Part shown: piece by piece, positions 4,797-63,833 of the stretch
Position numbering within the stretch: position 1 is the first letter of the stretch
Layout: each line of letters starts with the position of its first letter
From: Nitrospirales bacterium
GTDB lineage: Bacteria; Nitrospirota; Nitrospiria; Nitrospirales; UBA8639
Assembly: GCA_963555755.3 (NCBI GenBank)
Contig: OY820905.2
Coordinates: 1,984,001-2,048,000 of the forward strand
Direction: 5' to 3'
Length of the DNA: 64,000 nucleotides
Notes under the pieces: generated by a model
What the model was told of the DNA's origin: nothing
Databases searched by the model: none
The model's input: only the letters and a program-made list of their open reading frames with translations
Program-made: the position numbers and the translations under genes

Positions 4797-5567
4797 ATGC
4801 CACACCCACCTCAAACCACTTATAGATTGATCATATTTTTTGGGTGTCTGTTGGGACTCAGCACCGTCCCGTGGTCAGTAGGTGCGGGCACAGATTCCAT
4901 TTTGAAAGTGGGCACGTTTTCCACAGCCAGTCCAGGGGGGCCTTTCCCCGAGGGCTGGGAACCGCTTACCTTCGAAAAAATTCCGCAACACACCAAGTAT
5001 GAATTGGTGCAAGACCGTGACACTGTGGTGGTCAGAGCCACCAGCAAGCAATCGTCCTCCGGGCTGACCAGAAAGATGACCATTAACCCTAAAGCATTCC
5101 CGATCGTTCAATGGCGCTGGAAAATCGACAACATCATTCAATCAGGTGACGTCACGAAAAAAGAGAGCGACGATTATTCAGCCCGGATCTACATTACTTT
5201 TGAATATGACAGCAGCAAAGTTGGATTTTTTGAAAGGGCCAAATTCGAAATTATTAATCTGGCCTATGGCGAGTATCCACCAAGCGCGATCAACTATATT
5301 TGGGAGAGTAAAACACCTATCGGAACGATCGTGCCCAACCCCTATACGGATTACGTTCAAATGATCGTGACGCAAAGCGGCTCCCAACGGGTGGGGGAAT
5401 GGGTCACGGAGGAACGCAATGTATACGAAGACTACAAAGAAGCCTTTGGTGAAGAGCCACCAAACATTTCTGGCATCGCTATCATGACGGACACAGACAA
5501 CACCAAAGAATCCGCAACGGCGTATTTTGGCGACATCGTATTCAAGAAAGGGTTCGCGCAAGAATAA
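4797..5567 (+). CDS. DUF3047 family exported protein
   Basis: Signal peptide, WRWK..DDYSARIY, INYIW, EERNVYEDYKEAFGEEPP..GIAIMTDTDNT; last codons come from MITE B. Confidence 0.85.
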   Translation: MPHPPQTTYRLIIFFGCLLGLSTVPWSVGAGTDSILKVGTFSTASPGGPFPEGWEPLTFEKIPQHTKYELVQDRDTVVVRATSKQSSSGLTRKMTINPKAFPIVQWRWKIDNIIQSGDVTKKESDDYSARIYITFEYDSSKVGFFERAKFEIINLAYGEYPPSAINYIWESKTPIGTIVPNPYTDYVQMIVTQSGSQRVGEWVTEERNVYEDYKEAFGEEPPNISGIAIMTDTDNTKESATAYFGDIVFKKGFAQE

Positions 5568-5706
5568 CTTCCCATGTTTGGGTTCTGAGACGCCTGTCTG
5601 GCAAGGCGCGAGGACTGCGCATACTCCTCGTATGGAAAGGAGGAGCAACGCCGCCAGACGGGATGGATCGACGCCCAAACATAGGAAGTTATTCTTGCGC
5701 GAACCC
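5550..5706. mobile_element. MITE-like family B (157 bp)
   Basis: 23-bp perfect TIR GGGTTCGCGCAAGAATAACTTCC; AAA on both flanks; four copies in window. Confidence 0.88.
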
Positions 5707-5927
5707 AAAGCCCCTGCCCCTTGAATAACCACTCCATGTCCCGGACAGAGTACTGTTTTTCTAATGTGTACGCCTCTTCACAGAAATATTTTTCCGGAAG
5801 GTGTAACATTTCACCCCTACAGCTGACTCTCAAATAACATCGGAAGGAAAGGGCGAGGTGGATCAGGCTTCGTCCTTGTCACCGCACTCATCTTGAGAGG
5901 CATTTTAACCACAAGGAGGAGTTCTTT

Positions 5928-6209
5928 ATGATTTCCACAAAATCTATTCTTGTCAGCACGGCACTTACAGGTCTTCTCATGGCTTCCAGCGCCTATGCTG
6001 GCGCCGGTCACGAGGGCGGCCACGGCGACAAAGCTGCCGGACAATGCCATGGAGTCAACGCCTGCAAAGGACATGGAGCATGCAAAGGCGTAGGGCATTC
6101 TTGTGAAGGCAAAAACTCCTGCGAAGGCAAGGGTTGGCTGAAAATGACGAAAGACATGTGCGAGAAATTACAAGATGGAAAATGGAACGCCATGCCAAAG
6201 AAAAGCTAA
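5928..6209 (+). CDS. Small secreted Cys-rich protein, BufA2 bufferin-precursor-like
   Basis: Signal peptide, then CHGVNACKGHGACKG..SCEGKNSCEGKGW..C. Confidence 0.7.
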   Translation: MISTKSILVSTALTGLLMASSAYAGAGHEGGHGDKAAGQCHGVNACKGHGACKGVGHSCEGKNSCEGKGWLKMTKDMCEKLQDGKWNAMPKKS

Positions 6210-6247
6210 TTGAGCATTTTCACTTTCAGATGGCATTTCTCAAACAG

Positions 6248-6282
6248 CCCTCGCCCCTGAGGGGAGAGGGTAGGGTGAGGGG
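6248..6282. repeat. REP-like palindrome (CCCTCGCCCC...GGGGAGAGGG..AGGGTGAGGGG)
   Basis: Second copy at 54213-54255. Confidence 0.65.
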
Positions 6283-6360
6283 TTCCTCATCAGGACAATG
6301 AACATACTGAAGTAATCGAATATGATCACACAATTTGGTTCAAGCAAGGAGGTTGGTAAC

Positions 6361-6678
6361 ATGATTTCAAAAAAAAGTTTACTCACCAGCGCTGCACTCA
6401 CAGGGCTGTTACTCGCTGCGGGATGCGCTCATCAAGGTGGAGGTGGAGGGTACGATGGGTACGGGGGATACGGTAGTGGCGCCCAGGCCGCCCTTGGACA
6501 ATGTCATGGCGTCAATGCCTGTAAAGGCAAGGGAGAGTGCTCCACTGCGATACACGACTGTGCAGGAGAGAATTCTTGTGAAGGCAAGGGTTGGTTGAAA
6601 ATGTCAAAATCCATGTGCGGCGACATTAAAAGCAGCGCCTGGAACCCCATGCCGGAAAACATGAAACACAAAGGCTAA
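6361..6678 (+). CDS. Small Cys-rich putative lipoprotein, BufA2-like paralog
   Basis: LAAGC lipobox-like motif, Gly/Tyr linker, CHGVNACKGKGEC..DCAGENSCEGKGW; AAGGAGG RBS before ATG 6361. Confidence 0.7.
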   Translation: MISKKSLLTSAALTGLLLAAGCAHQGGGGGYDGYGGYGSGAQAALGQCHGVNACKGKGECSTAIHDCAGENSCEGKGWLKMSKSMCGDIKSSAWNPMPENMKHKG

Positions 6679-6698
6679 GACACTCAGCCATGAAATGA

Positions 6699-6738
6699 CA
6701 AAAGGCTGTGCGTCAACCAATACAACGCACAGCCTTTT
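6699..6738. terminator. Bidirectional intrinsic terminator between convergent genes
   Basis: AAAAGGCTGTGCGT...ACGCACAGCCTTTT. Confidence 0.75.
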
Positions 6739-6753
6739 GAACAAAAGCTTTCG

Positions 6754-7332
6754 CTACATGTAGTTTGGGATTCCTCCGGGTTTCCATTTAATGTTACACC
6801 CCGCACTGGGACGTTGATCCTGGTCCACAGGTTGTCCCGCCAACACGGCATCAATCGCCTCGCGTACATCCTTGCCCGTAACCGGCTTGCCATTTCCAGG
6901 ACGGCTCTCATCCAATTGCCCTCGATACACCAATTGTTGATTGGCATCGAAAAGGAAAAAATCCGGCGTGCATGCGGCGGTGAAGGCCTTGGCCACCTCC
7001 TGTCCCTCGTCATAACAGTAGGGAAAAGTAAATCCAAGCTCCTGCGCCATGGCCTTCAATTGCTCCGGACGGTCATCCGGATAGTTGTCCGCATCGTTGC
7101 TACTGATCCCCACAAGCCCAAGACCGTTCTCAATATAATCCTTTCCTAACCGAGCGAGCTCATTTTGCACGTGAACCACATAGGGGCAATGCCGACAAAT
7201 GAACATCACCAAGATTCCCTGTTTCCCAGAAAACTTGGTTGACGAAAACCTGGTGCCCGATACCACATCAGGTAACTCAAAAGTGGGAAGTGGTGTTCCT
7301 AGCGGCAACATCGTCGAGTTCTTTAAGGACAT
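6754..7332 (-). CDS. Thioredoxin-fold AhpC/TSA (PRX-like) protein
   Basis: MFICRHCPYV, ISSNDA..YPDD, AFTAACTPDFFLFD, PSAGCNIKW; start at MSLKNS. Confidence 0.9.
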   Translation of the reverse strand: MSLKNSTMLPLGTPLPTFELPDVVSGTRFSSTKFSGKQGILVMFICRHCPYVVHVQNELARLGKDYIENGLGLVGISSNDADNYPDDRPEQLKAMAQELGFTFPYCYDEGQEVAKAFTAACTPDFFLFDANQQLVYRGQLDESRPGNGKPVTGKDVREAIDAVLAGQPVDQDQRPSAGCNIKWKPGGIPNYM

Positions 7333-7453
7333 ATCAATGATTCCTCTTGCTTGAAAACGAAAGGGAGATTCGGGCCTACGGAGAAAGAGGTTCCAATCCA
7401 CCCATCCCCGCCACGGTACTTGGAAGGACCAGGCATGCCCCCTCGGAAACAGT

Positions 7454-7732
7454 TTATCCCTTTTTCCATGTACGAAAACGCTTGAGCAATTCCTCTCGTA
7501 CTTCCGTCGGCATGGGTTCGGGTGAGAGTTGTCCAAGGGTACGAATGGTAGCCTTCATTTGATTCAAATAGTTCCGACACCCCACACAAAAACCCAAATG
7601 GATTTGAAACCGAATTCGATCGGTAAAGGTCAACGTTCCCTCAAGGTACTCAGTCATTAAGTCAACAAGTTCCTGACAGGATATATTGCCGGCCATCAAG
7701 TGCATGACCTGGCCTTTAAGATCATTTGCCAT
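7454..7732 (-). CDS. Zinc-binding (zf-HC2) anti-sigma factor
   Basis: C..(x)..HLGFCVGC ZAS motif; directly after ECF sigma. Confidence 0.88.
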   Translation of the reverse strand: MANDLKGQVMHLMAGNISCQELVDLMTEYLEGTLTFTDRIRFQIHLGFCVGCRNYLNQMKATIRTLGQLSPEPMPTEVREELLKRFRTWKKG

Positions 7733-8421
7733 CAGCGTTTTGCCTTTGTGTTATTTAGTTGAGGTTCAATCATCTTCCTTACTCGGCTTCTGGCTCGATG
7801 CAGGAGGACCCGTTGATTGGTCTCGGTGACCTCTAAAATATTACAGACTTCTTTGGAGTCAACTCCATCAAGGTCCCTCAAGGTAATCACCTGCCGTTGA
7901 ACTGGCGGCAGGGCATCAATGGCTTGTTCAATGAGCATCCGGCTTTCTTTGGACAGTAACAGCCTCTCCGGGGTCTCCTCATCCCACATACTGGGCAAGG
8001 TGATCCAATGGCCCACTAATGCGCTCGAGGACTGAAATCGCTCAGGCTCTCTCCAGCCTTCATCATCACCGTCACTGTGCCCATCTCCGGTATCCAGAGA
8101 TTCATAACGACTTTCCCGCTTTCCACGGGTTTTGGCTCGATTCGTCAAAATTCGAAACATCCAGGTCTTGAGCGACGACCGGCCTTCAAACCGAGGGAGA
8201 CTCTCCAAGACTCCCATCCAGGTTTCTTGGACCACCTCTTCGGCCACAGCACGTGAGGGAACATAGGCCATCGCCAACCGCAAGAGTGAGCCATAATAGG
8301 TATCGATGAGAAATCCAAAGGCGGCTTCATCTCCCTGCCGTAAGGCCTCGACCAATACCTGCTCATCGTTCCATTTCGATTCAGGCGAGGCGGTCGGCTG
8401 CTGTTGTCCCTCTTCCTTCAT
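7732..8421 (-). CDS. ECF RNA polymerase sigma factor
   Basis: AEEVVQETW, FEGRSSLKTWMFRIL, VSE/TETNQRVLLHRAR-type regions 2 and 4; start MKEEG after GAGGTGG. Confidence 0.9.
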   Translation of the reverse strand: MKEEGQQQPTASPESKWNDEQVLVEALRQGDEAAFGFLIDTYYGSLLRLAMAYVPSRAVAEEVVQETWMGVLESLPRFEGRSSLKTWMFRILTNRAKTRGKRESRYESLDTGDGHSDGDDEGWREPERFQSSSALVGHWITLPSMWDEETPERLLLSKESRMLIEQAIDALPPVQRQVITLRDLDGVDSKEVCNILEVTETNQRVLLHRARSRVRKMIEPQLNNTKAKR

Positions 8422-8519
8422 GACCACCTCATTTAAACCTAGAAACGGCATTGGGGCGCAAAAAAGACGTGTAAGATATTGGCGGGCATGGTGCAATACA
8501 AAAAGTCGTGGTCACCCAA

Positions 8520-8676
8520 GGGCTCGCGCAAGAATAACTTCCCCCGTTTGGGCGTCGATCCATCCCGTCTGGCAGCGTTGCTCGTCCTTTCCATACGAGG
8601 AGTATGCGCAGTCCTCGCGCCTTGCCAGACAGGTGTCTCAGCACCCAAACAGGGGATGTTATTCCTGCGAGAGCCC
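8520..8676. mobile_element. MITE-like family B (nested in D)
   Basis: 157 bp; reverse complement of the 5550 and 53806 copies. Confidence 0.85.
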
Positions 8677-8719
8677 TTAGTGGTGATGAGACATTTTTTT
8701 ATTGTGCCAGGTGCGCTCA

Positions 8720-8982
8720 GGGTCCGTCACGAAATAACCGGGACAATTGGGAGGCCCAGATTTGTGATCGGGGCAAGGCGCGACGAGGGAGCCTAGCGGG
8801 GCTATGTGACTGAGGAGCAACGCCGCCCCGGGCCAAAGATGGGCCTCCCCGGAGGGCCGGACACTTTTGGGCTCCGCCGGCGTCGCTCATCGCTTCCATA
8901 CTCCCGGTATGCGCGCTCATCGCTCCTTGGCTCGCTCCAAAATTGTCTCGGCCAATTGTCCCGGTTATTTCGTGACGGACCC
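8720..8982. mobile_element. MITE-like family C (263 bp, nested in D)
   Basis: 30-bp TIR GGGTCCGTCACGAAATAACCGGGACAATTG; second copy at 53206-53468. Confidence 0.85.
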
Positions 8983-9234
8983 TAAGAGCTTGCGCGGACT
9001 TTTGTGATCCAACTGCTGTTTCTAGGTTAAACCTTGACTCACCGAAAGAAGCGACGAGAACCCCTTCCTTGCACACCCTTTTGCAACCCTTTCCTCAACC
9101 CATGCATTATGGTCAGGGGGAAGGCTTGAATCAAGTTCAGGAGAAGAGAACGATTTTACTCAAACGACTGTGACTCAGAGGAAAGGAAGAAACGGCAGAC
9201 AATGGAGAAGGAACACAGCACCCTGGGAAATGAA

Positions 9235-9873: not shown

Positions 9874-10188
9874 TCTTGGTCATCGAAATATCATCTATCG
9901 AGATTTTCCTGTGGTAAGCCATCGGCAGCAATGCACCCCTTGCCTAGACAACGACTTCGTCGAAATTTGCACTTCGGGCACACGACAATCTTGTCATCGA
10001 CCCGTGGCACTGATATTAGGGTTTAATCGGTTAACTTGGTGGGTTTCTTTAAAGTCCTTACGCCAAGTTATTCCATAAATCTGAGAGATTCCGCATTCCC
10101 ACGACCTATTCAAAATTCTTTAACAAGACCATCGAGAAGGAATAGAGACCAATGAGCAATGGGGCACACCAGACTCACCTGGGAAGAA

Positions 10189-10345
10189 GGGTTCGCGCAA
10201 GAATAACTTCCCCTGTTTGGGTGCTGAAACACCTGTCTGGCAAGGCGCGAGGGCTGCGCATACTCCTCGTATGGAAAGGACGAGCAACGCCGCCAGACCG
10301 GATGGATCGACGCCCAAACAGGGGAAGTTATTCTTGCGCGAGCCC
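10189..10345. mobile_element. MITE-like family B
   Basis: 157 bp, same TIR; flanks GAA/AAA. Confidence 0.85.
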
Positions 10346-10352
10346 AAAAGGC

Positions 10353-10394
10353 AAAAAAAGCCCTGACACTCACGGGAAAACGAGTATCAGGGCC
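10353..10394 (-). terminator. Intrinsic terminator of bfr
   Basis: GC-rich hairpin followed by T7 on the minus strand. Confidence 0.65.
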
Positions 10395-10417
10395 TTATCA
10401 AGATAATTGGATCTAGA

Positions 10418-11239: not shown

Positions 11240-11287
11240 CCTCGACTGAGTTGACCAATATTCTTAGCCAGTGCTACCGTCCCTTCC

Positions 11288-14200: not shown

Positions 14201-14986
14201 TCACATGCCTTTCGAGTCCTGCAACTTCCCATGAACCTGTTCGAGTCTGGAGCATTACTCACTCCCAACACTGGAAGTGACGGAACGCAAACCGTCCTGG
14301 AATTCGCGCAACGGGAGCAGATTGCCGTATTAGTAAACCGTCCACTCAATGCCATTCCGGCTAAGCATCAAGGCATGATTCGGTTAGCCGATCCACAAAC
14401 CGAACCGGTTGAATTCACATTTGAATCTCAGCATGAAAAACTGGCCACGTTGGAAGAAGAATTTCTGAAAGACTTTGTCCCGCATATCCCTTATTCAGGG
14501 AAGGGGCTCGAGCCCAAAGACTTTTTTTCCTTTACCGAAGAGCTCACCAGCCTTCGGCCTCAACTCCAAAGTCTCGAACATTGGGATCAAATCGAATCGC
14601 AAATGATTGCCCCCCACATCAACCAAGCCCTCCAAGTCGTCACCAAGCAACTCGGTGAAGACAAAGCCACCGCCTGGAAAAGTTGGCAAAACCGTTACAT
14701 TCCCACACTCGTGACTCTGTTTCTTATTCTACGAAAAGAGGCGGCTGCAAAAAATCGTGACACCCTCAAAGGGATCACAGCTACGATCGATCCCCTTCTG
14801 CCTGAAGAAAAGCGCCCAGAACCCATTTCCCGAAAAACCCTCTGGATTCTCACCAGCACGCCCGGCATCACCTGTGTCCTTAACGGCATGCGAACAACAC
14901 ACTATGTCGACGACGCACTCACCATCTTAAGCTGGGACCCACTTGCCACTCCACGAAACGTGTTTGAATCACTCATCCGGCCTTAG
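11288..14986 (+). CDS. YyaL/SSP411 thioredoxin plus (alpha/alpha)6 protein fused to a C-terminal aldo/keto reductase-like domain
   Basis: [39 protein letters not shown]; then [26 protein letters not shown]. Confidence 0.9.
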
Positions 14987-15165
14987 GACCTGCGAGAAAA
15001 TAACTTGATCAATATCGCGCCAAGATTTGGGTCGGATTTGGACGGAACGATTGAGAAACACCCGAGGCATAGCACAGCTATGGTGAGGGTGTTCCGATTG
15101 AGGCCCGTTCAAAGGTGGCCCGAAGATTGGATGCGAGATTGATTAAGTTATTTTCTCGCAGGTCC
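14986..15165. mobile_element. MITE-like family F (180 bp) at the gene stop codon
   Basis: TIR GGACCTGCGAGAAAATAACTT; TTA duplicated; absent from the duplicate gene end at 17090. Confidence 0.82.
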
Positions 15166-17810: not shown

Positions 17811-18015
17811 TTATAAGTGGAAGTTTGTCCAGTTCAACGGCACTGCTTGTCTTCTGAACATCCTTACCTTCTTTCGCATTTAAAGGTCTGCCATTTTGTC
17901 CAATGAGTCCTGTCCATGACGCTCCCAAACTCGTCACCTTGTTTCTTATTCTATGAAAAGAGGCCGCTGCACAAAGGTACGTTTGAGGAAGGTTTTTATG
18001 GGGGAATTATTAGAG

Positions 18016-18230
18016 GCAGGGTTTCGCCCCTGCACGACGAGGCCCTTTTGTTTCGGCAAAAGGACCCAAAACCATGTTCGCCCGTGCGTGTCCCTACGGG
18101 TGAACTCCGCCACCTTACCGAATCAAAATGGTTCAGAAACTCGCTGCGCTCAAACAGTCTTCGCCAAAGAGTCGGATTCGGTAAGGCGGCTCCGCCGCGC
18201 CCAAGGCGGAAAGAAACTCAAGAAACAAAT
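18016..18230 (+). repeat. Structured repeat family G, copy 1 (no TIR)
   Basis: Homologous to the reverse complement of 23651-23866, with compensatory stem changes. Confidence 0.75.
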
Positions 18231-18377
18231 CAGGAATACAAACTGCGGGCAAACCCTACTAAAACTGGCTCCTCCGAAGAATTTGTGGGTACTTCTCAGG
18301 TAACTCCTAAGTAACTTCATGCTATCCTCCGTCGTCCGGGTGCGCCGCGCGCCATAAGGGCGCTAGGTACCTCCCCG

Positions 18378-23435: not shown

Positions 23436-23650
23436 GGTGCTTCCTTTTTGACTAACTATGGATTATCTGCTTCTGTATAAGATCCCACTTCATTGGTTCT
23501 GCAGTATAAGCCCTTTGAAATGGTGAGACAATTAATGGCGTTTGAGGCTGCCTGACAGAGAGCCACGGTAGACGGCTTTGATTTGGTGTCAGGTCTGAGT
23601 ATGGAATTTTGGTAAGATTTGCTCTCCCCACGCTTGAGTTTGAAAACTTA

Positions 23651-23866
23651 ATTTGTTTCTTGAGTGTCTTCACGCCTTCGAGTGCGGCGGAGCTGGAGCC
23701 CCGAAACGGCTTTTTGGCGAAGGCTGTCTGAGCAGAGCGAGTTCCTGAGCCATCTTATTCGGGGCGGAGGCGGAGGAACCCCAGAAGGGGCCGCACACGG
23801 GCGACAGTGGTTTTGGGTACTTTTGCCGAAACAAAAGTGCCTCGTCGCGCGGGGACGAAACCCCGC
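23651..23866 (-). repeat. Structured repeat family G, copy 2
   Basis: See 18016-18230; lies just after the comEC stop. Confidence 0.75.
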
Positions 23867-23917
23867 ATAAAAAATTTCCAGCACCTTTCACCATGACTGA
23901 CAGGACGTCTTTCATGA

Positions 23918-37528: not shown

Positions 37529-37669
37529 GGGCACCTCTAAAAACCGTCCTTTTTCGTGATGGCGGCGTCAGTCGCGTGCTCAAATCCTCATGTATTCGCC
37601 CATACACTCCGGTTTTCCGCGCGCGGCTTCCTTGCCCTCACAAAAAATGCCGGGTTTTTAGAGGTGCCC
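37529..37669. mobile_element. MITE-like family A (141 bp) between hemA and hemC
   Basis: 17-bp TIR GGGCACCTCTAAAAACC; 4-bp duplication TTTA/TTTA. Confidence 0.9.
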
Positions 37670-41054: not shown

Positions 41055-41197
41055 GGGGATGTTAAAAAATGGCGTCAGCGGCGTTCTCGGCCCTTTATCG
41101 TGCCCACGTACTCGCGGACCCTCCGCGCGCCAAAGCGCCTGCAGCCTTGCTGATCGCGCCCCCCGCCTCCGCGAGGGCATGCTTTTTGAACATCCCC
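41055..41197. mobile_element. MITE-like family E
   Basis: TIR GGGGATGTT.AAAAA; six copies in window. Confidence 0.8.
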
Positions 41198-41356: not shown

Positions 41357-42076
41357 ATGAGTGGCACACTGTACATCGTTAGCACCCCAATCGGAAACCT
41401 CGAGGATTTTTCCTATCGGGCACACCGTATTCTCCAAGAAGTCAGCATTATCGCGGCAGAAGACACGAGGCATACTCAAAAACTTTGTGGTCATTATGGA
41501 ATTACGACCACACTGACGAGTTATCACGACTTTAACAAAGAACACAAAACACCGGTGCTTTTGGAAAAACTTCAGGGAGGACAATCAGTCGCGTTAGTTT
41601 CTGATGCAGGAACCCCTTTAATCTCTGATCCGGGATACTACCTCTTGACTCATGCTATTGCCGAAGATATTCCAATTGTGCCAATTCCCGGCCCCTCCGC
41701 TATTCTGGCAGCACTGACCGCATCGGGCTTACCGACAGACGCCTTTCGCTACGAGGGGTTTTTACCCAAAAAATCAGGGGCCCGCTCTCGAATGCTACAA
41801 ACCTTAGCGGAGGAGCCCCGAACCATCATCCTCTTCGAGACACCCCACCGTATTAAAGCGACATTATCTGAAATACAAGAAATTTTTGGAAATCGTCAAT
41901 TAACTATGGCCCGCGAGTTGACCAAAACTTATGAGGAATTTATTCGAGGAAGTGCCGAGGACATTTTGGCAAGGTACGGAACTCAAACGCCTCGAGGGGA
42001 AATAACGCTGGTTATTGCAGGCAGGCCAAAAACGAAAAGGCAATCAAAAAGGAACATGGCCGTTAAGGGCCTGTAA
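41357..42076 (+). CDS. rsmI: 16S rRNA C1402 2'-O-methyltransferase
   Basis: TPIGNLED, AAEDTR, LVSDAGTP.ISDPG, RELTK.YEE. Confidence 0.96.
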   Translation: MSGTLYIVSTPIGNLEDFSYRAHRILQEVSIIAAEDTRHTQKLCGHYGITTTLTSYHDFNKEHKTPVLLEKLQGGQSVALVSDAGTPLISDPGYYLLTHAIAEDIPIVPIPGPSAILAALTASGLPTDAFRYEGFLPKKSGARSRMLQTLAEEPRTIILFETPHRIKATLSEIQEIFGNRQLTMARELTKTYEEFIRGSAEDILARYGTQTPRGEITLVIAGRPKTKRQSKRNMAVKGL

Positions 42077-42243
42077 AAAAATAACTTGGACATCTCGCAT
42101 CCCATCTTCGAGCCATCTTTGAACGCGCCTCAATCGAAAAACCTCAACAGAGGCATACTATGCCTCGACTTTTTCTCAATCGTTACGTCCAAATCCAACC
42201 CAAATCTGGGCACGATTTTGTCCAAGATATTTTTTCACAGGCC

Positions 42244-42489
42244 CTAATCCTCACCTTTCTGAATCACCACTCGATAGCTTGCCCCAAGTTGATCCTGAGT
42301 GAGAATGGTATGTCCTTCATTTTTTACGCTTTGAGGAACATTCCTTATTGGTTCCCCATCATCTAAAATCACCGCTAAAATTTCCCCTGCAGACATCGTA
42401 TCCAATTTCAATTTCGTTTTAACAAAATTGTACGGACAAATTACACCCCGCAAGTCTAACTCAACCTGGGCTTCAATCTTTTGATTCAT
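42244..42489 (-). CDS. tusA: TusA family sulfur carrier
   Basis: LDLRGVICPY. Confidence 0.85.
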   Translation of the reverse strand: MNQKIEAQVELDLRGVICPYNFVKTKLKLDTMSAGEILAVILDDGEPIRNVPQSVKNEGHTILTQDQLGASYRVVIQKGED

Positions 42490-42501: not shown

Positions 42502-42684
42502 GGAACTGTTGAAAAAGACGGTCAGCCTTCGCCGTAGCGGCTTCGCGCAGGCAGGTCGGGGCTTTATCGAGATTCGCGCTCACAAACTTGGCGCTCTTCG
42601 CGCCGTTCGCCCTCACGTACTCCATGTACGCTGCGGGCGCCAAATCCCCTGCGGCCTTGCTGGACAGCCTTTTTCAACAGCCCC
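42502..42684. mobile_element. MITE-like family E variant with internal insertions
   Basis: Ends GGAACTGTTGAAAAAG/CTTTTTCAACAGCCCC; contains the CTCACGTAC..GTACGCT..CTGCGGCCTTGCTGG core. Confidence 0.75.
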
Positions 42685-49309: not shown

Positions 49310-49710
49310 TATTGGTGTGCATGGTGAAATATCGATGGTGATGAGACATTTTTGTATTTTGGCTGGTGCGCCAAGAAGCCTGTCCGAGATTAGGGATCGT
49401 CACGAGGATGTGCTGGTTTGAGTCAGATGTTTCGATCGTTTGAGGCGAATATTGGTGACTATTTAACGAAAACGGGGAATGTTCAAAAAGGCCGTCCAGC
49501 AAGGCCGCAGGGCTTTTGGCGCGCGGAGCGTACACGGAGTACGTGAGCACGCCAAAAGCCCGAGAACGCAGCTGGCGGCCTTTTTCAACATTCCCCGAAA
49601 AGGATCGGAAGATCTGGCCATACCCAGCGTACCCGCAGTAGATCCGTCTAATCTTGGACAGGCTCCTACAGCTTGCGCGGACCTTTGTGATCCAACTGCT
49701 GTTTCTAGGT
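49310..49710. mobile_element. Family D right part carrying J (49375-49666), which carries E (49474-49596)
   Basis: Ends GTTTCTAGGT; J TIR GAAGCCTGTCCGAGATTAG/CTAATCTTGGACAGGCTCC; E TIR GGGGAATGTT.AAAAAGGCC. Confidence 0.8.
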
Positions 49711-50503: not shown

Positions 50504-51299
50504 GGTTCTGTCGCAAATAGCGGAGTGTGTTAACCTGAGGCTATTTGAGGGGGAGCCCATCATGGCAGCCATATCCTTCAAAGGCCGGCATTTTCAGCAA
50601 GACATGATCCTGCAAAGCGTTCGTTGGTATCTCGCATATTCCCTCAGTTACCGGGACATCGAAGAATTGATGCAAGAACGTGGCTTCTCTGTTGATCACA
50701 GCACTATTAATCGCTGGGTCCTTCATTACTCCCCACAACTGGAAGCCGCCTTTCGGCTTAAAAAGAAGCGTGCTGGCACTCGGTGGAGAATGGATGAAAC
50801 CTACATTAAGGTAAAGGGCCAATGGAAATATTATTATCGGGCCATTGATAAGCAAGGGAATACCATCGATTTTCTCTTGACCGCAGCACGAGATACACAG
50901 GCTGCCTTACGCTTTTTGAAGAAAGCCATCAATGAAAACGGTAAACCGAGTCTGGTGAATATCGATCAGAGTGGTGCGAACAAAGCTGGCCTGAAACAGT
51001 TGAATCGAGATTATAATAAACGTATTAAAATCCGTCAGTGCAACTATCTGAACAATATTATCGAGCAAGACCACCGACGCATCAAAAGGCTCACACGACC
51101 GATGTTAGGCTTCAAAAACTTTTATGCGGCCCAACAGACGTTAGCGGGCATTGAAGTCATGGCAATGATCAAGAAAGGTCAGATAAAAACGCCGGCGGGA
51201 GACGCGACCTCTCCTGCCGAACGGTTCTATGCCCTCGCCGCGTAGTGCAGGCCATCCATCAAATGCTTTTCGTCTTGATCGAGTATTTGCGACAGAACC
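50504..51299 (+). mobile_element. IS6 family insertion sequence (796 bp)
   Basis: 16-bp perfect TIR GGTTCTGTCGCAAATA; no flanking duplication visible. Confidence 0.93.
50562..51245 (+). CDS. IS6 family DDE transposase
   Basis: FKGRHF, VDHSTINRWV, WRMDETYIKVKG, NNIIEQDHR. Confidence 0.95.
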   Translation: MAAISFKGRHFQQDMILQSVRWYLAYSLSYRDIEELMQERGFSVDHSTINRWVLHYSPQLEAAFRLKKKRAGTRWRMDETYIKVKGQWKYYYRAIDKQGNTIDFLLTAARDTQAALRFLKKAINENGKPSLVNIDQSGANKAGLKQLNRDYNKRIKIRQCNYLNNIIEQDHRRIKRLTRPMLGFKNFYAAQQTLAGIEVMAMIKKGQIKTPAGDATSPAERFYALAA

Positions 51300-53160: not shown

Positions 53161-54045
53161 ACCTAGAAACAGCAGTTGGATCACAAAAGTCCGCGCAAGC
53201 TCTTAGGGTCCGTCACGAAATAACCGGGACAATTGGCCGAGACGATTTTGGAGCGAGCCAAGGAGCGAAGAGCGCGCATACCGGGAGTATGGAAGCGATG
53301 AGCGACGCCGGCGGAGCCCAAAAGCGTCCGGCCCTCCGGGGAGGCCCATCTTTGGCCCGGGGCAGCGTTGCTCCTCGGTCACAGAGCCCCGCTCTGCTCC
53401 CTCGTCGCGCCTTGCCTCGATCACAAATCTGGGCCTCCCAATTGTCCCGGTTATTTCGTGACGGACCCTGAGCGCACATAGGAGCCTGGCCCAGATTAGA
53501 CAGATCTACTGCGGGTGCGCTGGAGGTGGCCAGATCTTCCGATCCTTTTCGGGGAATGTTGAAAAAGGCCCCCAGCTGCGTTCTCGGGCTTTTGGCGTGC
53601 TCACGTACTCCGTGTACGCTCCGCGCGCCAAAACCCCTGCGGCCTTGCTGGATGGCCTTTTTGAACATTCCCCGTTTTCGTTAAATAGTCACCACTATTC
53701 GCCTCAAACGATCGAAACATCTGGCTCAACCCAGCACCCCCTCGTCACGATCGCTAATCTCGGCCAGGCTCCTCGCAAAATACAAAAATGTCTTATCACC
53801 ACTAAGGGCTCTCGCAGGAATAACATCCCCTGTTTGGGTGCTGAGACACCTGTCTGGCAAGGCGCGAGGACTGCGCATACTCCTCGTATGGAAAGGACGA
53901 GCAACGCTGCCAGACGGGATGGATCGACGCCCAAACAGGGGATGTTATTCTTGCGCGAGCCCTTGGGTGCCCACGACTTTTTGTATTTCACCATGCACCC
54001 CAATGTCTTACACGGCTTTTTTGCGCCCAACTACTGTTTCTAGGT
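53161..54045. mobile_element. Family D composite with C (53206-53468), J (53481-53772, containing E 53551-53673) and B (53806-53962)
   Basis: TIR ACCTAGAAAC/GTTTCTAGGT; TCA duplicated on both flanks; each nested unit has its own TIR. Confidence 0.87.
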
Positions 54046-54060: not shown

Positions 54061-54201
54061 GGGCACTTCTAAAAACCAGGCATTTTTTGTGAGGGCAAGG
54101 AAGCCGCGCGCGGAAAACCGGAGTGTATGGGCGAATACATGAGGATGTGAGCACGTGGCTGACGCCGCCATCACGGAAAAGGACGGTTTTTAGAGGTGCC
54201 C
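54061..54201. mobile_element. MITE-like family A (141 bp)
   Basis: TIR as at 37529; 4-bp duplication ATCT/ATCT. Confidence 0.9.
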
Positions 54202-55597: not shown

Positions 55598-55886
55598 GGG
55601 GCCTGTTGAATATTTCATGCCCAGATCCCATAAATGCGCCAGGGAAGACAACCAACATCAGTGAGAGGAAATGTTCAAAAAAGCATGCCCTGAGTCTTTC
55701 CGAAGGGTCTATCCAGCAAGGCCGCAGCCCTTTTGACGCGCGAAGCGTACTCTCAGTACGTGAGGACGGCAAAAGGGCGACCAGCCTGCGCCAAGGCTAC
55801 GGTAGGCAGGGAACGCCGCTGGTGCCGTAGCCTTGGCGAAGGCTGGCGGCGTTTTCAACATTCCCATTAGAGTTTCGACAGGCTTC
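55598..55886. mobile_element. Outer IR element (H) containing a family E copy (55667-55865) with REP-like hairpins inside
   Basis: GCCTGTTGAA/TTCGACAGGC outer ends; E ends GGAAATGTTCAAAA/TTTTCAACATTCCC. Confidence 0.65.
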
Positions 55887-56656: not shown

Positions 56657-58282
56657 GTGAACACAAAAACCAAATGCCAACAGTTTAGGCAACTCCTCCA
56701 ATCACAGGAGTTGGAATTCATTTGTGAAGCCCATAATGGGCTCAGTGCCAAAATTGTGGAGGAAGCTGGGTTCAAGGGGATTTGGGGCAGTGGCTTGACC
56801 ATTTCCGCTCAGTTCGGGGTTCGAGACAATAATGAAGCGAGCTGGACGCAAATTCTGGACAACCTCGAGTTCATGTCTGATGCCACACATATTCCCATCC
56901 TGCTCGACGGCGATACTGGTTATGGCAATTTCAATAACATGCAACGACTCATTCGCAAACTCGAACAGCGCCAGATCGCCGCCGTCTGCATCGAAGACAA
57001 ACTCTTCCCCAAAACGAATAGTTTCTTGAAGGGCGATGCCCAACCCATGGCGGACATCGATGAATTTTCCGGCAAAATCAAAGCCGGCAAAGATGCGCAA
57101 ACCGATGACGATTTTTGCATCATCGCCCGGGTCGAAGCCTTTATTTGCGGGTGGGGGTTGGCCGAGGCCTTACGACGCGCCGACGCGTATCATCAAGCAG
57201 GCGCCGATGGCATTTTAATTCATAGTGCCCTGGCCGTTCCTGATGAAATCCTGTCATTCAAACGCGAATGGGGTGATCGCTGCCCGGTCGTCATCGTTCC
57301 GACGAAATATTATTCCACGCCGACCGACGTCTTTCGGCATTCCGAGTTCGCCATGGTCATTTGGGCCAACCACCTTCTTCGCACGGCTGTCACGACGATG
57401 CAAAAAACCGCCAAGACGTTGAAAGAACAGGAGCACCTGCTGTCCATCGAAGACCGAATCGCACCGGTATCTGAAATCTTTCGTCTTCAAGGTGCGGCAG
57501 AACTTCAAGAGGCGGAAAAACGGTATCTCCCGCAGAACTCCGAAAACATGGCCGCCATTATCCTGGCCGCTTCCCGAGGGGATGAGCTAGGTGAACTCAC
57601 GGAAGACAAACCCAAAACCATGGTGCATATCCAAGGCACGCCTCTCCTGTCCCACATTGTGGATGCCTACAATGCCGTGGGGATCAAAAATATTACGGTC
57701 GTTCGTGGTTACAAAAAAGAAGCCGTGACGCTGCCGAATCTCACCTATGTGGATAATGATAGGTTCGCCGATACAGGAGAATTGGATTCGCTGCTCAAAG
57801 CGCTTCGCGCAAAAAACGGGGCATTTCAAGACACAATTATTTCTTATGGCGATGTCTTGTTCAATCAATACATTCCACAAACGCTTTTCCAGGAACAAGA
57901 AGATCTGGTCATATTCGTGGATAGCTCATGGGAAGGGAAGACCAGTTATACTCGTCTCGGAGGATTCGCGGAATGCACCCTTCCCAATTCACGGAAAACA
58001 TTCCATTCAAAAGTGTATTTACAACAATTAGGCCAAGATGTGCCGGAAGCCTCCATCCACGGCGTCTGGATGGGATTCCTCAAAGTTTCCTCCAAAGCAT
58101 GTGAACAATTACAAGAAATTTTAGAACACATGCTTGCCGATCCTGCCAACCGGAAAGCCGGCATGTCTCAGTTGTTTCAAGAGTTGCTGCGACGGAAATT
58201 TTCCATCCGGGTCCTGTACACTGTTGGCCATTGGCTGGATATTAATAGCCTCGACGATATCGTCCATGCCGGAGAGTTTTAA
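56657..58282 (+). CDS. aepX: Phosphoenolpyruvate mutase fused to a C-terminal NTP-transferase domain
   Basis: PepM signature [24 protein letters not shown]-terminal ILAASRG..LG.LT.DKPK.M; GTG start. Confidence 0.95.
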
Positions 58283-58352
58283 AGTCTGAAGGGCCCCGTG
58301 AGTTCCATAGGGATTCCCGCAACTGATTCATCCTTCCAAACAGAAATCCATT

Positions 58353-59477
58353 ATGCTTGACCCCGAACAGTTTTTTGCATGCCTTCAGCAGCATGAGGTG
58401 TCGTTTTTCACAGGAGTCCCGGATTCACTGCTGAAAGATTTTTGTGCTTGCGTGACGCAAAAGGCTCCAGAGAACCAACATATTATCAGTGCCAATGAAG
58501 GCGGGGCCGTTGCCTTGGCGGTTGGCTACCATCTCGCCACAGGGAACATTCCTTTGGTCTATTTACAGAATTCCGGGTTGGGGAACATCATTAATCCCCT
58601 TCTCTCACTGGCCGATCCGGACGTGTATGCCATTCCCATACTGTTCGTCATCGGATGGCGAGGTGAACCGGACGTGCATGATGAACCCCAACATAAAAAG
58701 CAAGGGCGGGTCATGCTGTCCATGCTGGACTCGATGGAAATACCCTATTCCATTGTCAACCCGGAGATGGATCAGGCCGAGGCAACCATTAAACAGGCAC
58801 TTCACACCGCTCGTGAGACTCATGGCCCCTATGCCCTGATCATTCGAAAAGGCACCTTTAGTCCGTTTCAGCTCCAGCAACCGCCCGCCCCGTCTTTTGA
58901 ATTAACAAGGGAAGCAGCCATTCACCATATCCTTGATGAGCTCGGAGATGAGGATATCGTTATCTCCACGACCGGCATGCCCTCTCGCGAAGTCTTTGAA
59001 TATCGAGCGCACAAGAATCAAGGGCATCAACGAGATTTCTTAACGGTGGGTGGAATGGGACATGCGTCACACATCGCCTTGGGCATTGCTCTTCAAAAAC
59101 CCGACCGAAAGGTATTGTGTTTGGATGGCGATGGGGCGGTACTCATGCATTTGGGTGCCCTGGCCATCAATGGGTCTCTCAAACCACAGAATTTTACACA
59201 TATCCTCCTCAACAACGGGGCCCACGATTCCGTGGGCGGACAACCGACCGTTGGGTTTCAAGTAGACTTTTTGACCATGGCTCAAGCGGTAGGCTATAAA
59301 ACAACAGCCCAGGTTCAGACCGCTGAAGGGATCAAACACGAACTCGTGAGGATTCGAAAATCTCAAGGACCAAGCTTACTGGAAATTCGTATCAACAAAG
59401 GGGCAAGAAAAGATTTAGGAAGACCAACATTGACTCCGGTTCAGAATAAACAGGGGTTTATGAAATTTCTTTCCTAA
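58353..59477 (+). CDS. aepY: Phosphonopyruvate decarboxylase
   Basis: FTGVPDSLL, ANEG, QNSGLGN, DEPQH, VGGMGH, DGDGA.LMH. Confidence 0.95.
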   Translation: MLDPEQFFACLQQHEVSFFTGVPDSLLKDFCACVTQKAPENQHIISANEGGAVALAVGYHLATGNIPLVYLQNSGLGNIINPLLSLADPDVYAIPILFVIGWRGEPDVHDEPQHKKQGRVMLSMLDSMEIPYSIVNPEMDQAEATIKQALHTARETHGPYALIIRKGTFSPFQLQQPPAPSFELTREAAIHHILDELGDEDIVISTTGMPSREVFEYRAHKNQGHQRDFLTVGGMGHASHIALGIALQKPDRKVLCLDGDGAVLMHLGALAINGSLKPQNFTHILLNNGAHDSVGGQPTVGFQVDFLTMAQAVGYKTTAQVQTAEGIKHELVRIRKSQGPSLLEIRINKGARKDLGRPTLTPVQNKQGFMKFLS

Positions 59478-59596
59478 TCTGTTCGGACGTAATGCGTGAA
59501 GCGTAGGGGAAAAAGAGCAACGGTATTTCTTCCACCTATAACGGATCACCCATCACGGATCACGAAACCGGCCAATAATTTTCTGCGCCACCAATC

Positions 59597-60439: not shown

Positions 60440-60979
60440 TGGCGCTGATTCCGTTTGATTGTCCTCTTGATTCTTTGAGCCGCTGACTTCGGAGGTCAAT
60501 GTATCAGATGTCTCCGCCGTTGCCCGGGATAGATCCTTACTCTCAGCCACTGGGCCAAAAGTCTTTTTGGACTTAACCTGGCCTGCTTTACCCTGGCCTA
60601 TTGAGGAGCCCATGGTGATTTTTCCATTAAAAATCACGCCATTGTCCATAGACAGTTTGGGAGTTGTAATCGACGCATCAATGGTCGCCGGCGATTTAAG
60701 CTCGACCCGTTGGACGGCGGTGATTTCTCCCGTGATTCGCCCACTGGCGATCACCGCCCCAGCATGAATCTGAGCTTTCACGTTAGCTTGCTCGCCGATG
60801 AATAAGGTGTCTTCGGTTTCAATTTCGCCTTCGAAAGTTCCATCGATTCGAACATTCCCTTTGTAGGTCAGCACCCCGGAAAATTGTACTTCGTGCCCCA
60901 CAAACGCCACGATGTCTCCCAACTCTGATAACGTTCTCTCCATTGTCCGATTTGAGAATTCGTCTTTTTCCTGGGCCAT
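60434..60979 (-). CDS. Bactofilin (polymer-forming cytoskeletal protein)
   Basis: VRIDG.FEGEI...L.IGE.A.V.A.I, G.I.GEI.A..RVEL. Confidence 0.9.
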   Translation of the reverse strand: MAQEKDEFSNRTMERTLSELGDIVAFVGHEVQFSGVLTYKGNVRIDGTFEGEIETEDTLFIGEQANVKAQIHAGAVIASGRITGEITAVQRVELKSPATIDASITTPKLSMDNGVIFNGKITMGSSIGQGKAGQVKSKKTFGPVAESKDLSRATAETSDTLTSEVSGSKNQEDNQTESAPS

Positions 60980-61236
60980 AGTTTCACTCCTTCATCACCA
61001 AAGACAAACTTACAAGGCCAATGCCAAGACACCCTACAAGAAATATGGCCTCGCTTCAATGCACAGATACAATTTTCCATGCCTCCCTTTTCATATTGTC
61101 TCTTTTTCAGGTATTTTCTCTTGGTTCACCGATTTAACCTAGACATTATGTATTGACCTGCCCAATCTTCAGGCACGTGGGGTAAGCTACGGGGGAATCA
61201 CCCGGAGTTTACAACCACCATGAAGGAGGACAGGGC

Positions 61237-62361
61237 ATGAACCAGTTTCACAAGTTTGTTGGGTTGGACACACACAAGGACACGATTGCGGTGGCGGTGA
61301 GTGAGGCGAATGGGGGGCCCACCCGGTACTATGGTGAAATTTCAAACACGCCCAAGGCGCTGGCCAAGTTGGTCAAGACCCTGACCGCCCAAGGGGACGC
61401 GGTGTCATTTTGTTATGAGGCCGGCCCGTGTGGCTATGGGATCTATCGACAACTCACGGCGTTGGGCCAGGCTTGCGCGGTGGTGGCGCCGTCCCTGATC
61501 CCCACGAAACCGGGCGACCGAGTGAAGACGGATCGGCGCGACAGTGAATCGCTGTCCCGGTTGCATCGGGCAGGCGAGCTCACAGCCGTCTGGGTGCCGG
61601 ATCAGGAGCAGGAAGCGATGCGGGATCTCACGCGAGCGCGGGAAGATATGAAAGGGCTGGAACGGATCACCAAACAACGGCTCAATGCGTTTCTGCTTCG
61701 GCATGGCCGCAACTATGATCGGGGAAAATGTCGTTGGACCCAGGCGCATAGCCGCTGGTTGGCAGGCCTGAAGTTTGAGAACACGGTGCAACAGATTGTC
61801 TTTCAAGAATATATAGAGGCGGTGAAGCAGGCCGCAGGCCGCGTGTCCGGGTTGGAACACGAGATGGCGCAAGCGCTAAAGACCTGGGAGCTGGCCCCAA
61901 TGGTCGAGGCCCTGATGGCCCTGCGCGGGGTGAAGCTGATCACCGCCATGACCGTGCTGGCAGAACTGGGGGACCTCAGTCGTTTTACCTCCCCGTCGCA
62001 ACTGATGGCCTATCTGGGGCTGGTGCCTCGTGAACACTCCAGTGGCCAGACCCGGCGGCGCGGCGGGATCACCAAGACGGGTAACGGCCATGTGCGGCGG
62101 GTGCTGGTCGAAGCCGCCTGGGGATACCGGTTCCCGGCTCGTAAGACTGCGCATCTGCAACGGCGGGCCACACAGACGTCCGCAGCCGTGCAGGCCATCG
62201 CCTGGAAAGCCCAGAAGCGATTGTGCGGGCGCTATCGGCATCTGCTGGCGGCCGGGAAACTCACGGTGCAGGCTTGTACGGCTGTGGCCCGGGAGTTGGC
62301 GGGGTTTATCTGGGCGATTGCGTGTGAAGTCCTGAACCAACCGGCTGTGAACACTCGGTAA
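61237..62361 (+). CDS. IS110 family DEDD recombinase/transposase
   Basis: VGLDTHK, YEAGPCG, KTDRRD, GLVPREHSSG, GGITKTGN. Confidence 0.96.
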   Translation: MNQFHKFVGLDTHKDTIAVAVSEANGGPTRYYGEISNTPKALAKLVKTLTAQGDAVSFCYEAGPCGYGIYRQLTALGQACAVVAPSLIPTKPGDRVKTDRRDSESLSRLHRAGELTAVWVPDQEQEAMRDLTRAREDMKGLERITKQRLNAFLLRHGRNYDRGKCRWTQAHSRWLAGLKFENTVQQIVFQEYIEAVKQAAGRVSGLEHEMAQALKTWELAPMVEALMALRGVKLITAMTVLAELGDLSRFTSPSQLMAYLGLVPREHSSGQTRRRGGITKTGNGHVRRVLVEAAWGYRFPARKTAHLQRRATQTSAAVQAIAWKAQKRLCGRYRHLLAAGKLTVQACTAVARELAGFIWAIACEVLNQPAVNTR

Positions 62362-62406
62362 GACCTGAGCGAACTGACTGGTTAGCACCACCATGCACAC
62401 AAGGAA

Positions 62407-62618
62407 TATCCAGCCAGTCTTTGGGCCAGGGCAGGGGCGGCCGGTGGGAGAATCCTCGGCGTTTCTATGAGGCGCTCAACAGAACTGAGACGACCCTCGA
62501 TCCTAGAGAGAGGCAGCTCCACGACGAAGAGAGGTCAGGCGGTGTCGACCCGCGTATATCAGAGTGATCCACCGTCGTTGATTGCCACCCCTGCCCTGTG
62601 CCAAGGACTGGCTGGATA
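62407..62618 (+). ncRNA. Predicted bridge/seek RNA of the IS110 element
   Basis: Long closing stem TATCCAGCCAGTC..AGGGCAGGGG / CCCCTGCCCT..GACTGGCTGGATA enclosing two internal loops with target- and donor-matching segments. Confidence 0.7.
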
Positions 62619-62680
62619 AAGCCAGAACGGATGCGACATTGAACACTTGATTACCAATAGTTGACAGGTCAATACATATC

Positions 62681-62755
62681 AGAAACGGCAGTTGGGCGCA
62701 AAAAGGCGTGTAAGATATTGGTGTGCATGGTGAAATACAAAAAGTCGTGGTCACC
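62681..62755. mobile_element. Remainder of family D left end (first 4 bp at 61137-61140)
   Basis: AGAAACGGCAGTTGGGCGCAAAAAGGCGTGTAAGATATTGG...GTGGTCACC matches 8441-8516. Confidence 0.85.
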
Positions 62756-62836
62756 ATAGGGGTCGGGCAAAATAGTGACCCAGTTGCCCCCCAGCTTAAC
62801 CATAACGTTGATGTCGCCTACATGTTTGAGTCAATC

Positions 62837-63688
62837 ATGAAATTAAAACATGGGAGCTCTCTTGTCCTCATCCTCACGTTGATCATGCCGTGCTTCCCAG
62901 TATTCGGCAAGGACAAGCCTGATATCATGCTGGCTAAAATTTACGAACGCGGCATCGATGTCACCCAGTATTGGGTGAGTGAAAAACTCGATGGAGTCCG
63001 GGCTCGATGGGACGGCACCCAGCTCATCTCCCGAGGGGGCCACACCTTCGCTGCGCCGGAATGGTTCACCCACGGTTTTCCGTCCATACCCTTGGACGGA
63101 GAATTATGGACCGAGAGAAGTCAGTATGAAAACCTGTCTTCGATTGTCAGAAAGCAACAACCCCATAAGGGATGGCGGTCCGTCCGCTTGATGGTATTTG
63201 ATCTTCCCGCTCATGGCGGTAGTTTTGACGAACGAGTCCAGGCCATGAAGCAGATCGTGCTCCAGACCAAATCACCCTACCTGGGGGTCATTGAACAATG
63301 GCGGGTCGGGAACGAAAACGAATTGAAGCAGCGATTGCAATCCGTGATCGATCGAGGCGGCGAGGGGTTGATGCTGCACCGCAACACGGCACGGTACGCG
63401 AGCGGTCGCAGTCACGATTTACTCAAACTCAAACCCTTTTCCGACGCCGAAGCCACGGTGATCGGCTATCGGCCAGGAAAGGGTAAATATCTCGGGCACG
63501 TCGGGTCGCTTAAAGTACAGACGGACGACGGGAGACAATTCTTTATCGGAACCGGACTCAGCGATGAAGAACGACGCCAACCCCCACCTCTGAATAGCAG
63601 AATAACCTTTCGTTTCCAAGGCCGGACAAAAAACGGCATCCCTCGCTTTCCGGTGTTTTTGCGCATCCGCGATGAAGAACCACAATAG
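62837..63688 (+). CDS. Minimal ATP-dependent DNA ligase with signal peptide (LigE-like)
   Basis: SEKLDGVRA, LDGELW, EGLML, LLKLK, PRFPVF; hydrophobic N-terminus. Confidence 0.9.
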   Translation: MKLKHGSSLVLILTLIMPCFPVFGKDKPDIMLAKIYERGIDVTQYWVSEKLDGVRARWDGTQLISRGGHTFAAPEWFTHGFPSIPLDGELWTERSQYENLSSIVRKQQPHKGWRSVRLMVFDLPAHGGSFDERVQAMKQIVLQTKSPYLGVIEQWRVGNENELKQRLQSVIDRGGEGLMLHRNTARYASGRSHDLLKLKPFSDAEATVIGYRPGKGKYLGHVGSLKVQTDDGRQFFIGTGLSDEERRQPPPLNSRITFRFQGRTKNGIPRFPVFLRIRDEEPQ

Positions 63689-63833
63689 GGAATATTGAAA
63701 AAGAGCGTCAACGGCGTTCTCGGCCCTTTGTCGTGCTCACGTACTCCCGTACGCTCCGCGCGCCAAAGCGCCTGCGGCCTTGCTGAGCGCACCTTCCTTC
63801 GGCGTTGGCTCAGGACAGGTTTTGAACATCCCC
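63688..63833. mobile_element. MITE-like family E at the ligase stop codon
   Basis: GGGAATATTGAAAA/TTTTGAACATCCCC ends; internal part closest to the 41055 copy. Confidence 0.8.

Follow-up and report, generated by a model that had tools for sequence, protein, structure and literature searches.

The described repeats closest to the elements analysed here are ERIC (also IRU or RU-1), a 127-bp repeat of enterobacteria, and the Correia element (NEMIS, CREE) of Neisseria. How these repeats move and why they multiply have been open questions since their discovery; in the available extracts of PMC2229807, the transposase model for both stands without experimental support. The nearest general class is that of type II prokaryotic MITEs (miniature transposable elements with inverted repeats), and whole MITEs are described as genus-specific in extracts of PMC11602168. 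We analysed a 64,000-nucleotide stretch of a 4.6-Mb bacterial chromosome (C1:1984001-2048000, hereafter the window) and the families of short repeats found in it. Like type II MITEs, these elements are short, non-coding, intergenic and hairpin-forming, with terminal inverted repeats (TIRs) and target duplications; unlike them, they have an interior that is conserved across end types and phyla. Judged from their sequences, they are non-autonomous transposons in which unrelated ends enclose one homologous core, and the same core lies within ERIC and Correia, although the window families, having different ends, are neither.

A first-pass annotation had proposed that families A, B, C and E differ in their ends and duplications (4 bp for A, 3 bp for B) and share one architecture. 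This holds genome-wide: the four are dispersed repeats with 37-160 full-length copies each (A 120, B 160, C 37, E 149), and the core was also found in Eb (43 copies) and in a fifth core-bearing family, the IS66-type family M (11 copies), which has yet other ends and another duplication. The families without the full core are F (78 copies), F2 (15), G (67) and K (43). Family lengths in the window range from 119 to 263 nt, and 15-mers occurring at least eight times cover 11.3% of the chromosome. The interval 5550..63833 originally assigned to the families does hold them, but one A copy precedes it at 1-125 and M lies outside the window.

Exact target duplications of 4 bp flank 97 of the 120 A copies, and exact 3-bp duplications flank 90 of 160 B copies (TAA/TTA), 10 of 37 C copies and 51 of 78 F copies; 3-bp duplications were also found for 48 of 67 G copies, and exact 8-bp ones for 4 of 11 M copies. 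The short non-coding elements carry TIRs, as prokaryotic MITEs do, and the further trait of a target duplication is present in A, B, C and M and not consistent in E. No consistent duplication was seen among the genome copies of E, and when a long one was looked for, 115 of 149 E and all 43 Eb copies were without it. Single-arm copies are almost all intergenic (2 of 483 lie inside predicted genes). Both basal motifs of the core are exact in 111 of 120 A, 125 of 160 B, 136 of 149 E and 39 of 43 Eb copies, and, in the two-armed family C, in 26 (arm 1) and 31 (arm 2) of 37. Taken alone, the two short motifs were rejected as evidence, with 1019 genome matches against 547 expected; the specificity of the core resides in its fixed spacing and fold.

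In A, B, C, E and M the core begins with an outer stem, followed by a basal loop of 5x6 (AAGGC opposite AACGCM) with two invariant closing pairs below it and two more above, a spacer stem in which Watson-Crick pairs and tandem G-A interchange at fixed length, an apical loop closed by G-A, and a short terminal hairpin of 5-7 bp with a free loop of 3-7 nt. A canonical kink-turn has a 3-nt bulge followed by tandem G-A/A-G; the apical internal loops, read from alignments as 2x2, 3x2 or 3x3 with a bulge of 0-1 nt, are of a different kind. The five apical hairpins quoted in the first-pass annotation are all present in the window as written, and the GAG/GCG and TGA/GAA bracket described for them is accurate for those hairpins and more varied across phyla. 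The hairpin of family F had been listed with the others, which is right for the apical part: F matches our core model R1 with 12.4 bits at model positions 20-55, lacks the CAAGG/ACGC basal motif, and gives no match to model R2. The latter was built from 42 rows that include neither E. coli nor family E sequences, and scores the E copies of the window at 28-48 bits.

The claim that stems differ while pairing is kept was borne out by covariation in both unselected and hand-picked cores. Among 26 unselected 55-nt matches, six column pairs scored above anything obtained by shuffling: five of them lie in the stems, and the sixth is at a non-canonical apical-loop position (A-A 10, G-G 6, C-A 6). Among 17 unselected 56-nt matches, one pair, Watson-Crick in all 17, exceeded the null. 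The unbiased covariation and length figures rest on such unselected matches; one alignment row (L155) proved wrong and was left out. A further set of 48 short cores, hand-picked for structure (44 matches from genome scans and four from this genome), had 80.2% of cells pairing against 53.7% after shuffling, a level reached in 0 of 500 shuffles, with 342 double changes against 145 in shuffled sets and 31-40% pairing in slid controls. Double changes were found at 22 of the 25 pairs, so that the stems are almost wholly turned over across phyla.

The motif had also been called strand-specific, and this agrees with the mismatch spectrum. The outer stems contain 110 G-A and 109 G-T pairs but only 5 C-T and 18 A-C pairs, their mirror types, an excess that marks one strand as the folding strand. 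The core strand has the lower folding energy in 105 of 125 cases with RNA parameters and in 114 of 125 with DNA parameters. The core is predicted to fold on one strand. Neither the mismatch spectrum nor the sizes of the loops distinguished DNA from RNA. Two-armed elements with one core on each strand were found in three lineages (family C, locus L061 and genome G167), as expected if either strand may be exposed.

The core occurs in two length classes only, of about 55 and 75 nt. In the genome scan an outer stem is present in 59 of 74 matches of 52-58 nt, 2 of 10 of 59-71 nt and 20 of 31 of 72-76 nt; in metagenomes it is present in 0 of 7 matches of 70-72 nt, 46 of 77 of 73-79 nt and 1 of 37 of 80-99 nt, against a cross-locus chance rate of 6.7%. 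The step of 20 nt corresponds to 10 bp per arm, or about one helical turn. The absence of a half-turn class suggests that the basal loop and the apical loop need to point in the same direction.

Both described repeats contain this core. The ERIC copy between aceF and lpd of E. coli K-12 carries a long-class core of 77 nt (26.4 bits, E 7e-5 with R2), and by eye it matches the RU-1 consensus given in Table 1a of PMC2759123, as far as that source was available, over 40 nt. Two more K-12 loci score 45.4 and 38.6 bits with R2, the former being another ERIC copy, and ten matches were obtained at E up to 1; only two K-12 matches were strong, against the 19-21 or so ERICs listed in the accessible part of PMC2267715. 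ERIC has TA ends and a TA duplication (PMC2229807, Table 1, seen in extract). The window families have its central hairpin in common, basal and apical loops included, but instead of a 127-bp element of that kind they have other ends and 3-, 4- or 8-bp duplications (8 bp in M).

Correia elements carry the short-class core in their short form, and their TA duplication and 26-bp ends are unlike those of every window family. Of 30 loci that start at the published Correia end, 10 give an R1 match with an E-value of 0.1 or below, in a scan whose pattern required the 5' motif and left only the 3' motif and the fold free; short copies reach modest scores of 20-23.5 bits. One of these loci (L300) shares 98.8% identity with repeats in N. 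gonorrhoeae records, which have no fewer than 40 such places. The long Correia form, in which extracts of PMC2229807 report an insert of about 50 nt in the 3' arm with a site for integration host factor (IHF), mostly escapes R1. A BLAST search of a Correia core against phages returned chance-level matches only.

Beyond these genera, a pattern fixing only the two basal motifs gave an estimated 64,000 matching stretches in species-representative genomes and 36,000 in metagenomes, with 120 and 121 loci listed, respectively. Folded matches among the loci listed come from several classes of Proteobacteria, Desulfobacterota, Actinomycetota, Planctomycetota, Bacteroidota, Acidobacteriota, Elusimicrobia and Spirochaetota, and many sit inside inverted repeats of differing sequence. 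None of the 120 matches listed for this GC-rich pattern is from Bacillota, Cyanobacteria or archaea. Five genomes chosen for having a match contain 21, 3, 21, 120 and 109 matches. In random samples, the core was found in at least 61 of 151 genomes of the bacterium's own phylum (R2), at least 8 of 41 genomes of its order (R1), and at least 5 of 61 genomes of the phylum of Lewinella (R1), the Lewinella genome itself having 120 matches. The distribution is patchy and bursty. Same-family genomes of 2.1-2.6 Mb (L325-L351) contain one 145-nt long-class element with another end type.

Ends and core assort independently. The ends of M and A are unrelated, whereas their apical halves are near-identical. 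M has ends and an 8-bp duplication of the same kind as an IS66 element present in 12 copies in the genome (PF03050, 159 bits); ends starting with GTAA together with an 8-bp duplication, which we take to be the traits of the IS66 family, are common to M and this DDE_Tnp_IS66 element. An insertion sequence (IS) with matching TIRs, to be looked for under one of the proposed checks, was found for M, and in one of the 12 copies neither end, over the 200-260 nt read there, showed a core. Type II MITEs resemble their partner IS in the TIRs alone, and M likewise has only its ends in common with IS66. A second MITE with M-type ends has an unrelated interior without the core, so that the genome provides a matched pair of IS66-type ends with and without it, beside an intact-looking IS66 in 12 copies. 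For family E, a candidate partner is a DUF772/DDE_Tnp_1_2 element in two copies, with E-like ends and no core at those ends. Plasmids yielded no partner IS with A or F ends. Apparent autonomous partners of K and B were rejected as other ISs nested inside them (IS5-type and IS630-type). An IS110 element considered as targeting the core was ruled out, since it inserts in a small accessory hairpin of Eb; this IS110-family element (PF01548, PF02371) uses one insertion spot in Eb and occurs in L005 (G000:C1:342894-344247) and about 11 other places.

Copy numbers above 100, alongside few matching autonomous elements or none in this genome, raise the alternative of a separate copying route, in which the core would be the substrate, as a reverse-transcribed transcript or a peeled and re-primed strand, and a DDE transposase would only insert the product. 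The strand-specific fold and the indifference to transposase family would fit such a route, as would the many reverse-transcriptase open reading frames (ORFs) noticed by eye in the genome. However, no intermediate, dedicated gene or linked ORF was seen, and ends and duplications are ordinary for DDE elements; we consider this the least probable of the explanations discussed here.

The history of individual copies was analysed on trees of A, B, E and Eb copies by separating changes found in a single copy from those shared by several. Part of the cross-phylum conservation of the loops is imposed by the search pattern, and this within-family test is free of it. In the basal loop and its closing pairs, 117 changes were confined to single copies and 22 were shared; for TIRs and other stems the figures were 962 and 400 (p 0.0005). 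The shared-to-single ratio was 0.19 for the basal loop, 0.42 for TIRs, 0.93 for the terminal loop and 0.07 for the apical stem. The basal loop does not vary freely; free variation of the loop nucleotides had been named beforehand as an outcome that would speak against a conserved module. The pattern is plainest in family B, where single-copy change is spread about evenly over the element (3.27 changes per site in the basal loop, 3.57 in the TIRs) and shared change avoids the core. Across seven families including F, G and K, pair variants present in at least three copies favour G-T/G-A on the core strand (98:53), while rare ones stand at 235:226 (p 0.0034). Core change is depleted in propagating copies more strongly than change in TIRs. 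Read together, these results indicate that resident copies decay nearly neutrally and that copies leaving descendants keep the core.

These data bear on shared ancestry alone as an explanation, according to which an old hairpin was passed between end types by nesting and any imperfect palindrome would do, provided it is stable enough to fold and imperfect enough not to be lost by palindrome deletion. The homology of the cores from family to family is plain (rows L037 and L016), nesting is rife, and F, G and K prosper with other interiors. We nevertheless regard this explanation as quite unlikely: the unpaired loop bases stay, more constrained than TIRs, while the stems around them are turned over, and a general tolerance of palindromes gives no reason to expect two length classes that differ by 20 nt.

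A signal acting in RNA after insertion is somewhat less unlikely but still improbable. A co-transcribed core would steer nucleases or termination so that an insertion harms its neighbours less, and only such insertions would be fixed. G-U and tandem G-A pairs are typical of RNA, several copies abut stop codons, and pieces of the elements resemble the Rfam families sX9 and CssrA below threshold. Co-transcription of ERIC and Correia, with cleavage by RNase E or RNase III that depends on orientation, has also been reported (PMC2229807, in extract). Yet only one strand folds into the core, and our rough gene calls (3928 ORFs, single-arm core families pooled) gave no consistent orientation to transcription (162:160) or to replication (230:253). 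In addition, the basal loop of resident B copies is lost about as fast as other parts, and rare variants are strand-symmetric, which implies little selection after insertion. Two metatranscriptome contig sets contained repeats and a few genes at low depth; the contigs carry no information on strand, ends or level, and the repeat-to-gene depth ratio was no higher than in a DNA run.

The explanation that we favour, giving it about an even chance, is that the core acts in cis, as a single-strand module, to raise the propagation of its own element. The annotation's suggestion of a conserved single-strand module carried by several non-autonomous transposons is supported by the covariation, strand, length and constraint tests. 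Each family would be moved by the DDE transposase that reads its ends. The core would fold when its strand is unpaired, by cruciform extrusion or at a replication fork; we lean slightly to an unpaired DNA strand over a transcript because orientation to transcription is indifferent. The folded core could bring the two element ends together and display both loops, basal and apical, on the same face of the helix to a host protein that is widely conserved; alternatively, the loops may dock into a fixed fold. Replacement of ends over time by nested insertion would let the core outlive any one transposase partner.

Several observations weigh against such a propagation module. Families F, G and K reach 43-78 copies without an exact basal motif, so the motif is not required for success. 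No partner IS was found in the genome for the ends of A, B, C or F. In the apical internal loop shared changes were not significantly depleted (29 single-copy, 10 shared; p 0.7), core change in E is low in both classes, and the test itself relies on parsimony, short sequences and full-length copies selected by BLAST, with possible gene conversion. No pair exceeded the null among 11 unselected 75-nt matches, and the long-class alignment has only 5 consensus pairs. The isolated G-A cases lie mostly (56 of 69) at three positions under the basal loop, and with this concentration the G-A excess does not separate DNA from RNA energetics. Individual families do have orientation biases, in opposite directions: E is antisense at gene 3' ends (16:53) and A is sense (25:12 and 23:7). 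Finally, Mos1 mini-elements of 80-120 bp need neither host factors nor full palindromy to transpose in vitro (PMC2642840, in extract), which weakens a simple end-joining argument.

We hold a broader proposal more tentatively, as somewhat doubtful: ERIC, Correia and many uncatalogued mini-transposons with IS630-, IS5- and IS66-type ends may be one superfamily, defined, in place of shared ends, by a helically phased single-strand aptamer that would recruit a conserved host factor and boost copying whichever transposase is involved. Such a universal cis-acting amplifier would account for the hundreds of copies that these repeats attain. The interiors of MITEs are generally regarded as decayed filler, and here the core is more constrained than the transposon ends; it extends across transposase families and phyla and follows a length rule of one helical turn, which makes it a precise target for mutation. 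The elements are known ones, the shared module is apparently undescribed, and its geometry is testable.

Other systems resemble the core less. CORE-SINE superfamilies have a conserved central domain without known function in non-autonomous elements that borrow different enzymes; those are retroposons, in contrast to the DNA-transposon ends and duplications found here. Integron attC sites have R and L boxes, arrayed cassettes and a linked integrase, and the dispersed copies with TIRs and duplications argue against them, no box search having been made. REPINs, whose distinction from MITEs is drawn in the accessible text of bioRxiv 2021.07.10.451892, are inverted pairs of REP hairpins tied to a RAYT gene. 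The window elements have IS-type ends and 3-8 bp duplications instead. A search of Rfam 15 returned only tRNA in the window and no family at gathering threshold in two sets of 20 loci, in line with the expectation of no match. Below threshold, sX9 (RF02228) hit the antisense of the 5' half of a core element (31.4 of 44 bits) and CssrA (RF02798) the 3' half of ERIC (26.1 of 93 bits); neither models the core. At L105:125-196 and L283:828-928, both look like fragments of core-bearing repeats, again below threshold.

The annotation knew of no named family, which is correct for the core itself and not for its carriers, as it lies inside the long-known ERIC and Correia. Published text as searched held no description of the shared core; primary ERIC and Correia papers, ISfinder and supplements fell outside that scope and may hold one. 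Specifically, a core common to families is not described in the available extracts of PMC2229807, PMC10969869, PMC11602168, PMC3184786, PMC2759123, PMC5039591, PMC2267715, PMC3110155, PMC2642840, PMC3049150 and bioRxiv 2021.07.10.451892.

Within the window, the elements lie among ordinary, functionally unrelated genes (26 ORFs scanned). The A element on the forward strand at 1..125 is cut by the window start and has a long-class core at 11-100 (62.2 bits); further A elements are at 37529..37669 on the reverse strand (core 37554-37643, 60.6 bits) and 54061..54201 on the forward strand (core 54087-54176, 61.6 bits). The 157-nt B element at 5550..5706 (forward) has a 3-bp duplication and a short-class core at 5591-5664, whose 69.7 bits were obtained with this copy in the training set; it also provides the stop codon of an ORF ending at 5567. 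Another forward B element occupies 10189..10345 (core 10230-10303, 63.5 bits). Elements of the E type include a reverse-strand variant at 41055..41197 (core 41071-41158, 28.4 bits), a partial reverse-strand copy at 42591..42684 (17.1 bits) and a second reverse-strand variant at 63688..63833 (core 63703-63792, 37.0 bits). The forward Eb element at 55667..55865 has small hairpins inserted in its 3' arm and scores 16 bits for the apex only. Members of this family (55598-55865) often extend 80 nt further to the left, up to a second E-type end, giving a longer composite with its own outer ends. The forward F element at 14986..15165 has only the apical G-A loop and hairpin in common with the core, and the degenerate F2 element at 42066..42244 (reverse) only the apex. 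By eye, F (14986-15165) and K (49374-49667) have a seeming variant basal loop, GAGGC facing AACGA, which in F is flipped between arms; its positions take almost no shared changes.

Three loci are nested. A forward G element without the basal motif (8437..9027) is interrupted by a reverse B element at 8520..8676 (core 8562-8635, 66.5 bits) and a forward two-armed C element at 8720..8982 (cores 8763-8836 on the forward and 8867-8940 on the reverse strand, 56.9 and 46.5 bits). At 49374..49667 a forward K element within a partial G is interrupted by a forward E element at 49476..49594 (core 49490-49580, 47.8 bits, with E absent from the training set). The reverse-strand composite at 53161..54045 is a G containing C, K (itself containing E) and B: the C element at 53206..53468 (reverse; cores 53352-53425 reverse and 53248-53321 forward), the E element at 53553..53671 (reverse; core 53567-53657, 43.8 bits) and the B element at 53806..53962 (forward; core 53847-53920, 66.5 bits). 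The order and spots of nesting are fixed across these loci (8437-9027, 49310-49710 and 53161-54045), with B at the G apex, C and K received by the G 3' arm, and E received by K. Near-identical nested composites of 600-900 nt recur in the genome.

Other repeats and genes were noted in passing. A further repeat family of about 200-270 nt, at 17972-18244 and 23613-23883, has up to about 100 BLAST hits, lacks clear TIRs or the core, and contains a large IS in some copies. The window also holds an IS6-family element (DDE_Tnp_IS240) with perfect 16-bp ends at 50504-51299 and an IS110-family RNA-guided transposase at 61237-62361 (NF033542, 273 bits). Elsewhere in the genome, an abundant IS with about 41 copies (L011, G000:C1:471918-473866) has an ORF joining a DruA-like domain to DDE_Tnp_1_assoc, and a Y1/RAYT-like transposase ORF, recognised by eye, lies between perfect 16-bp inverted repeats at G000:C1:1146650-1147658. 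Adjacent genes for phosphoenolpyruvate mutase and phosphonopyruvate decarboxylase at 56657-59477 represent the start of phosphonate biosynthesis, and two short tandem ORFs at 5929-6210 and 6322-6678 encode repeated Cys-rich motifs, with a 61-nt repeat between them.

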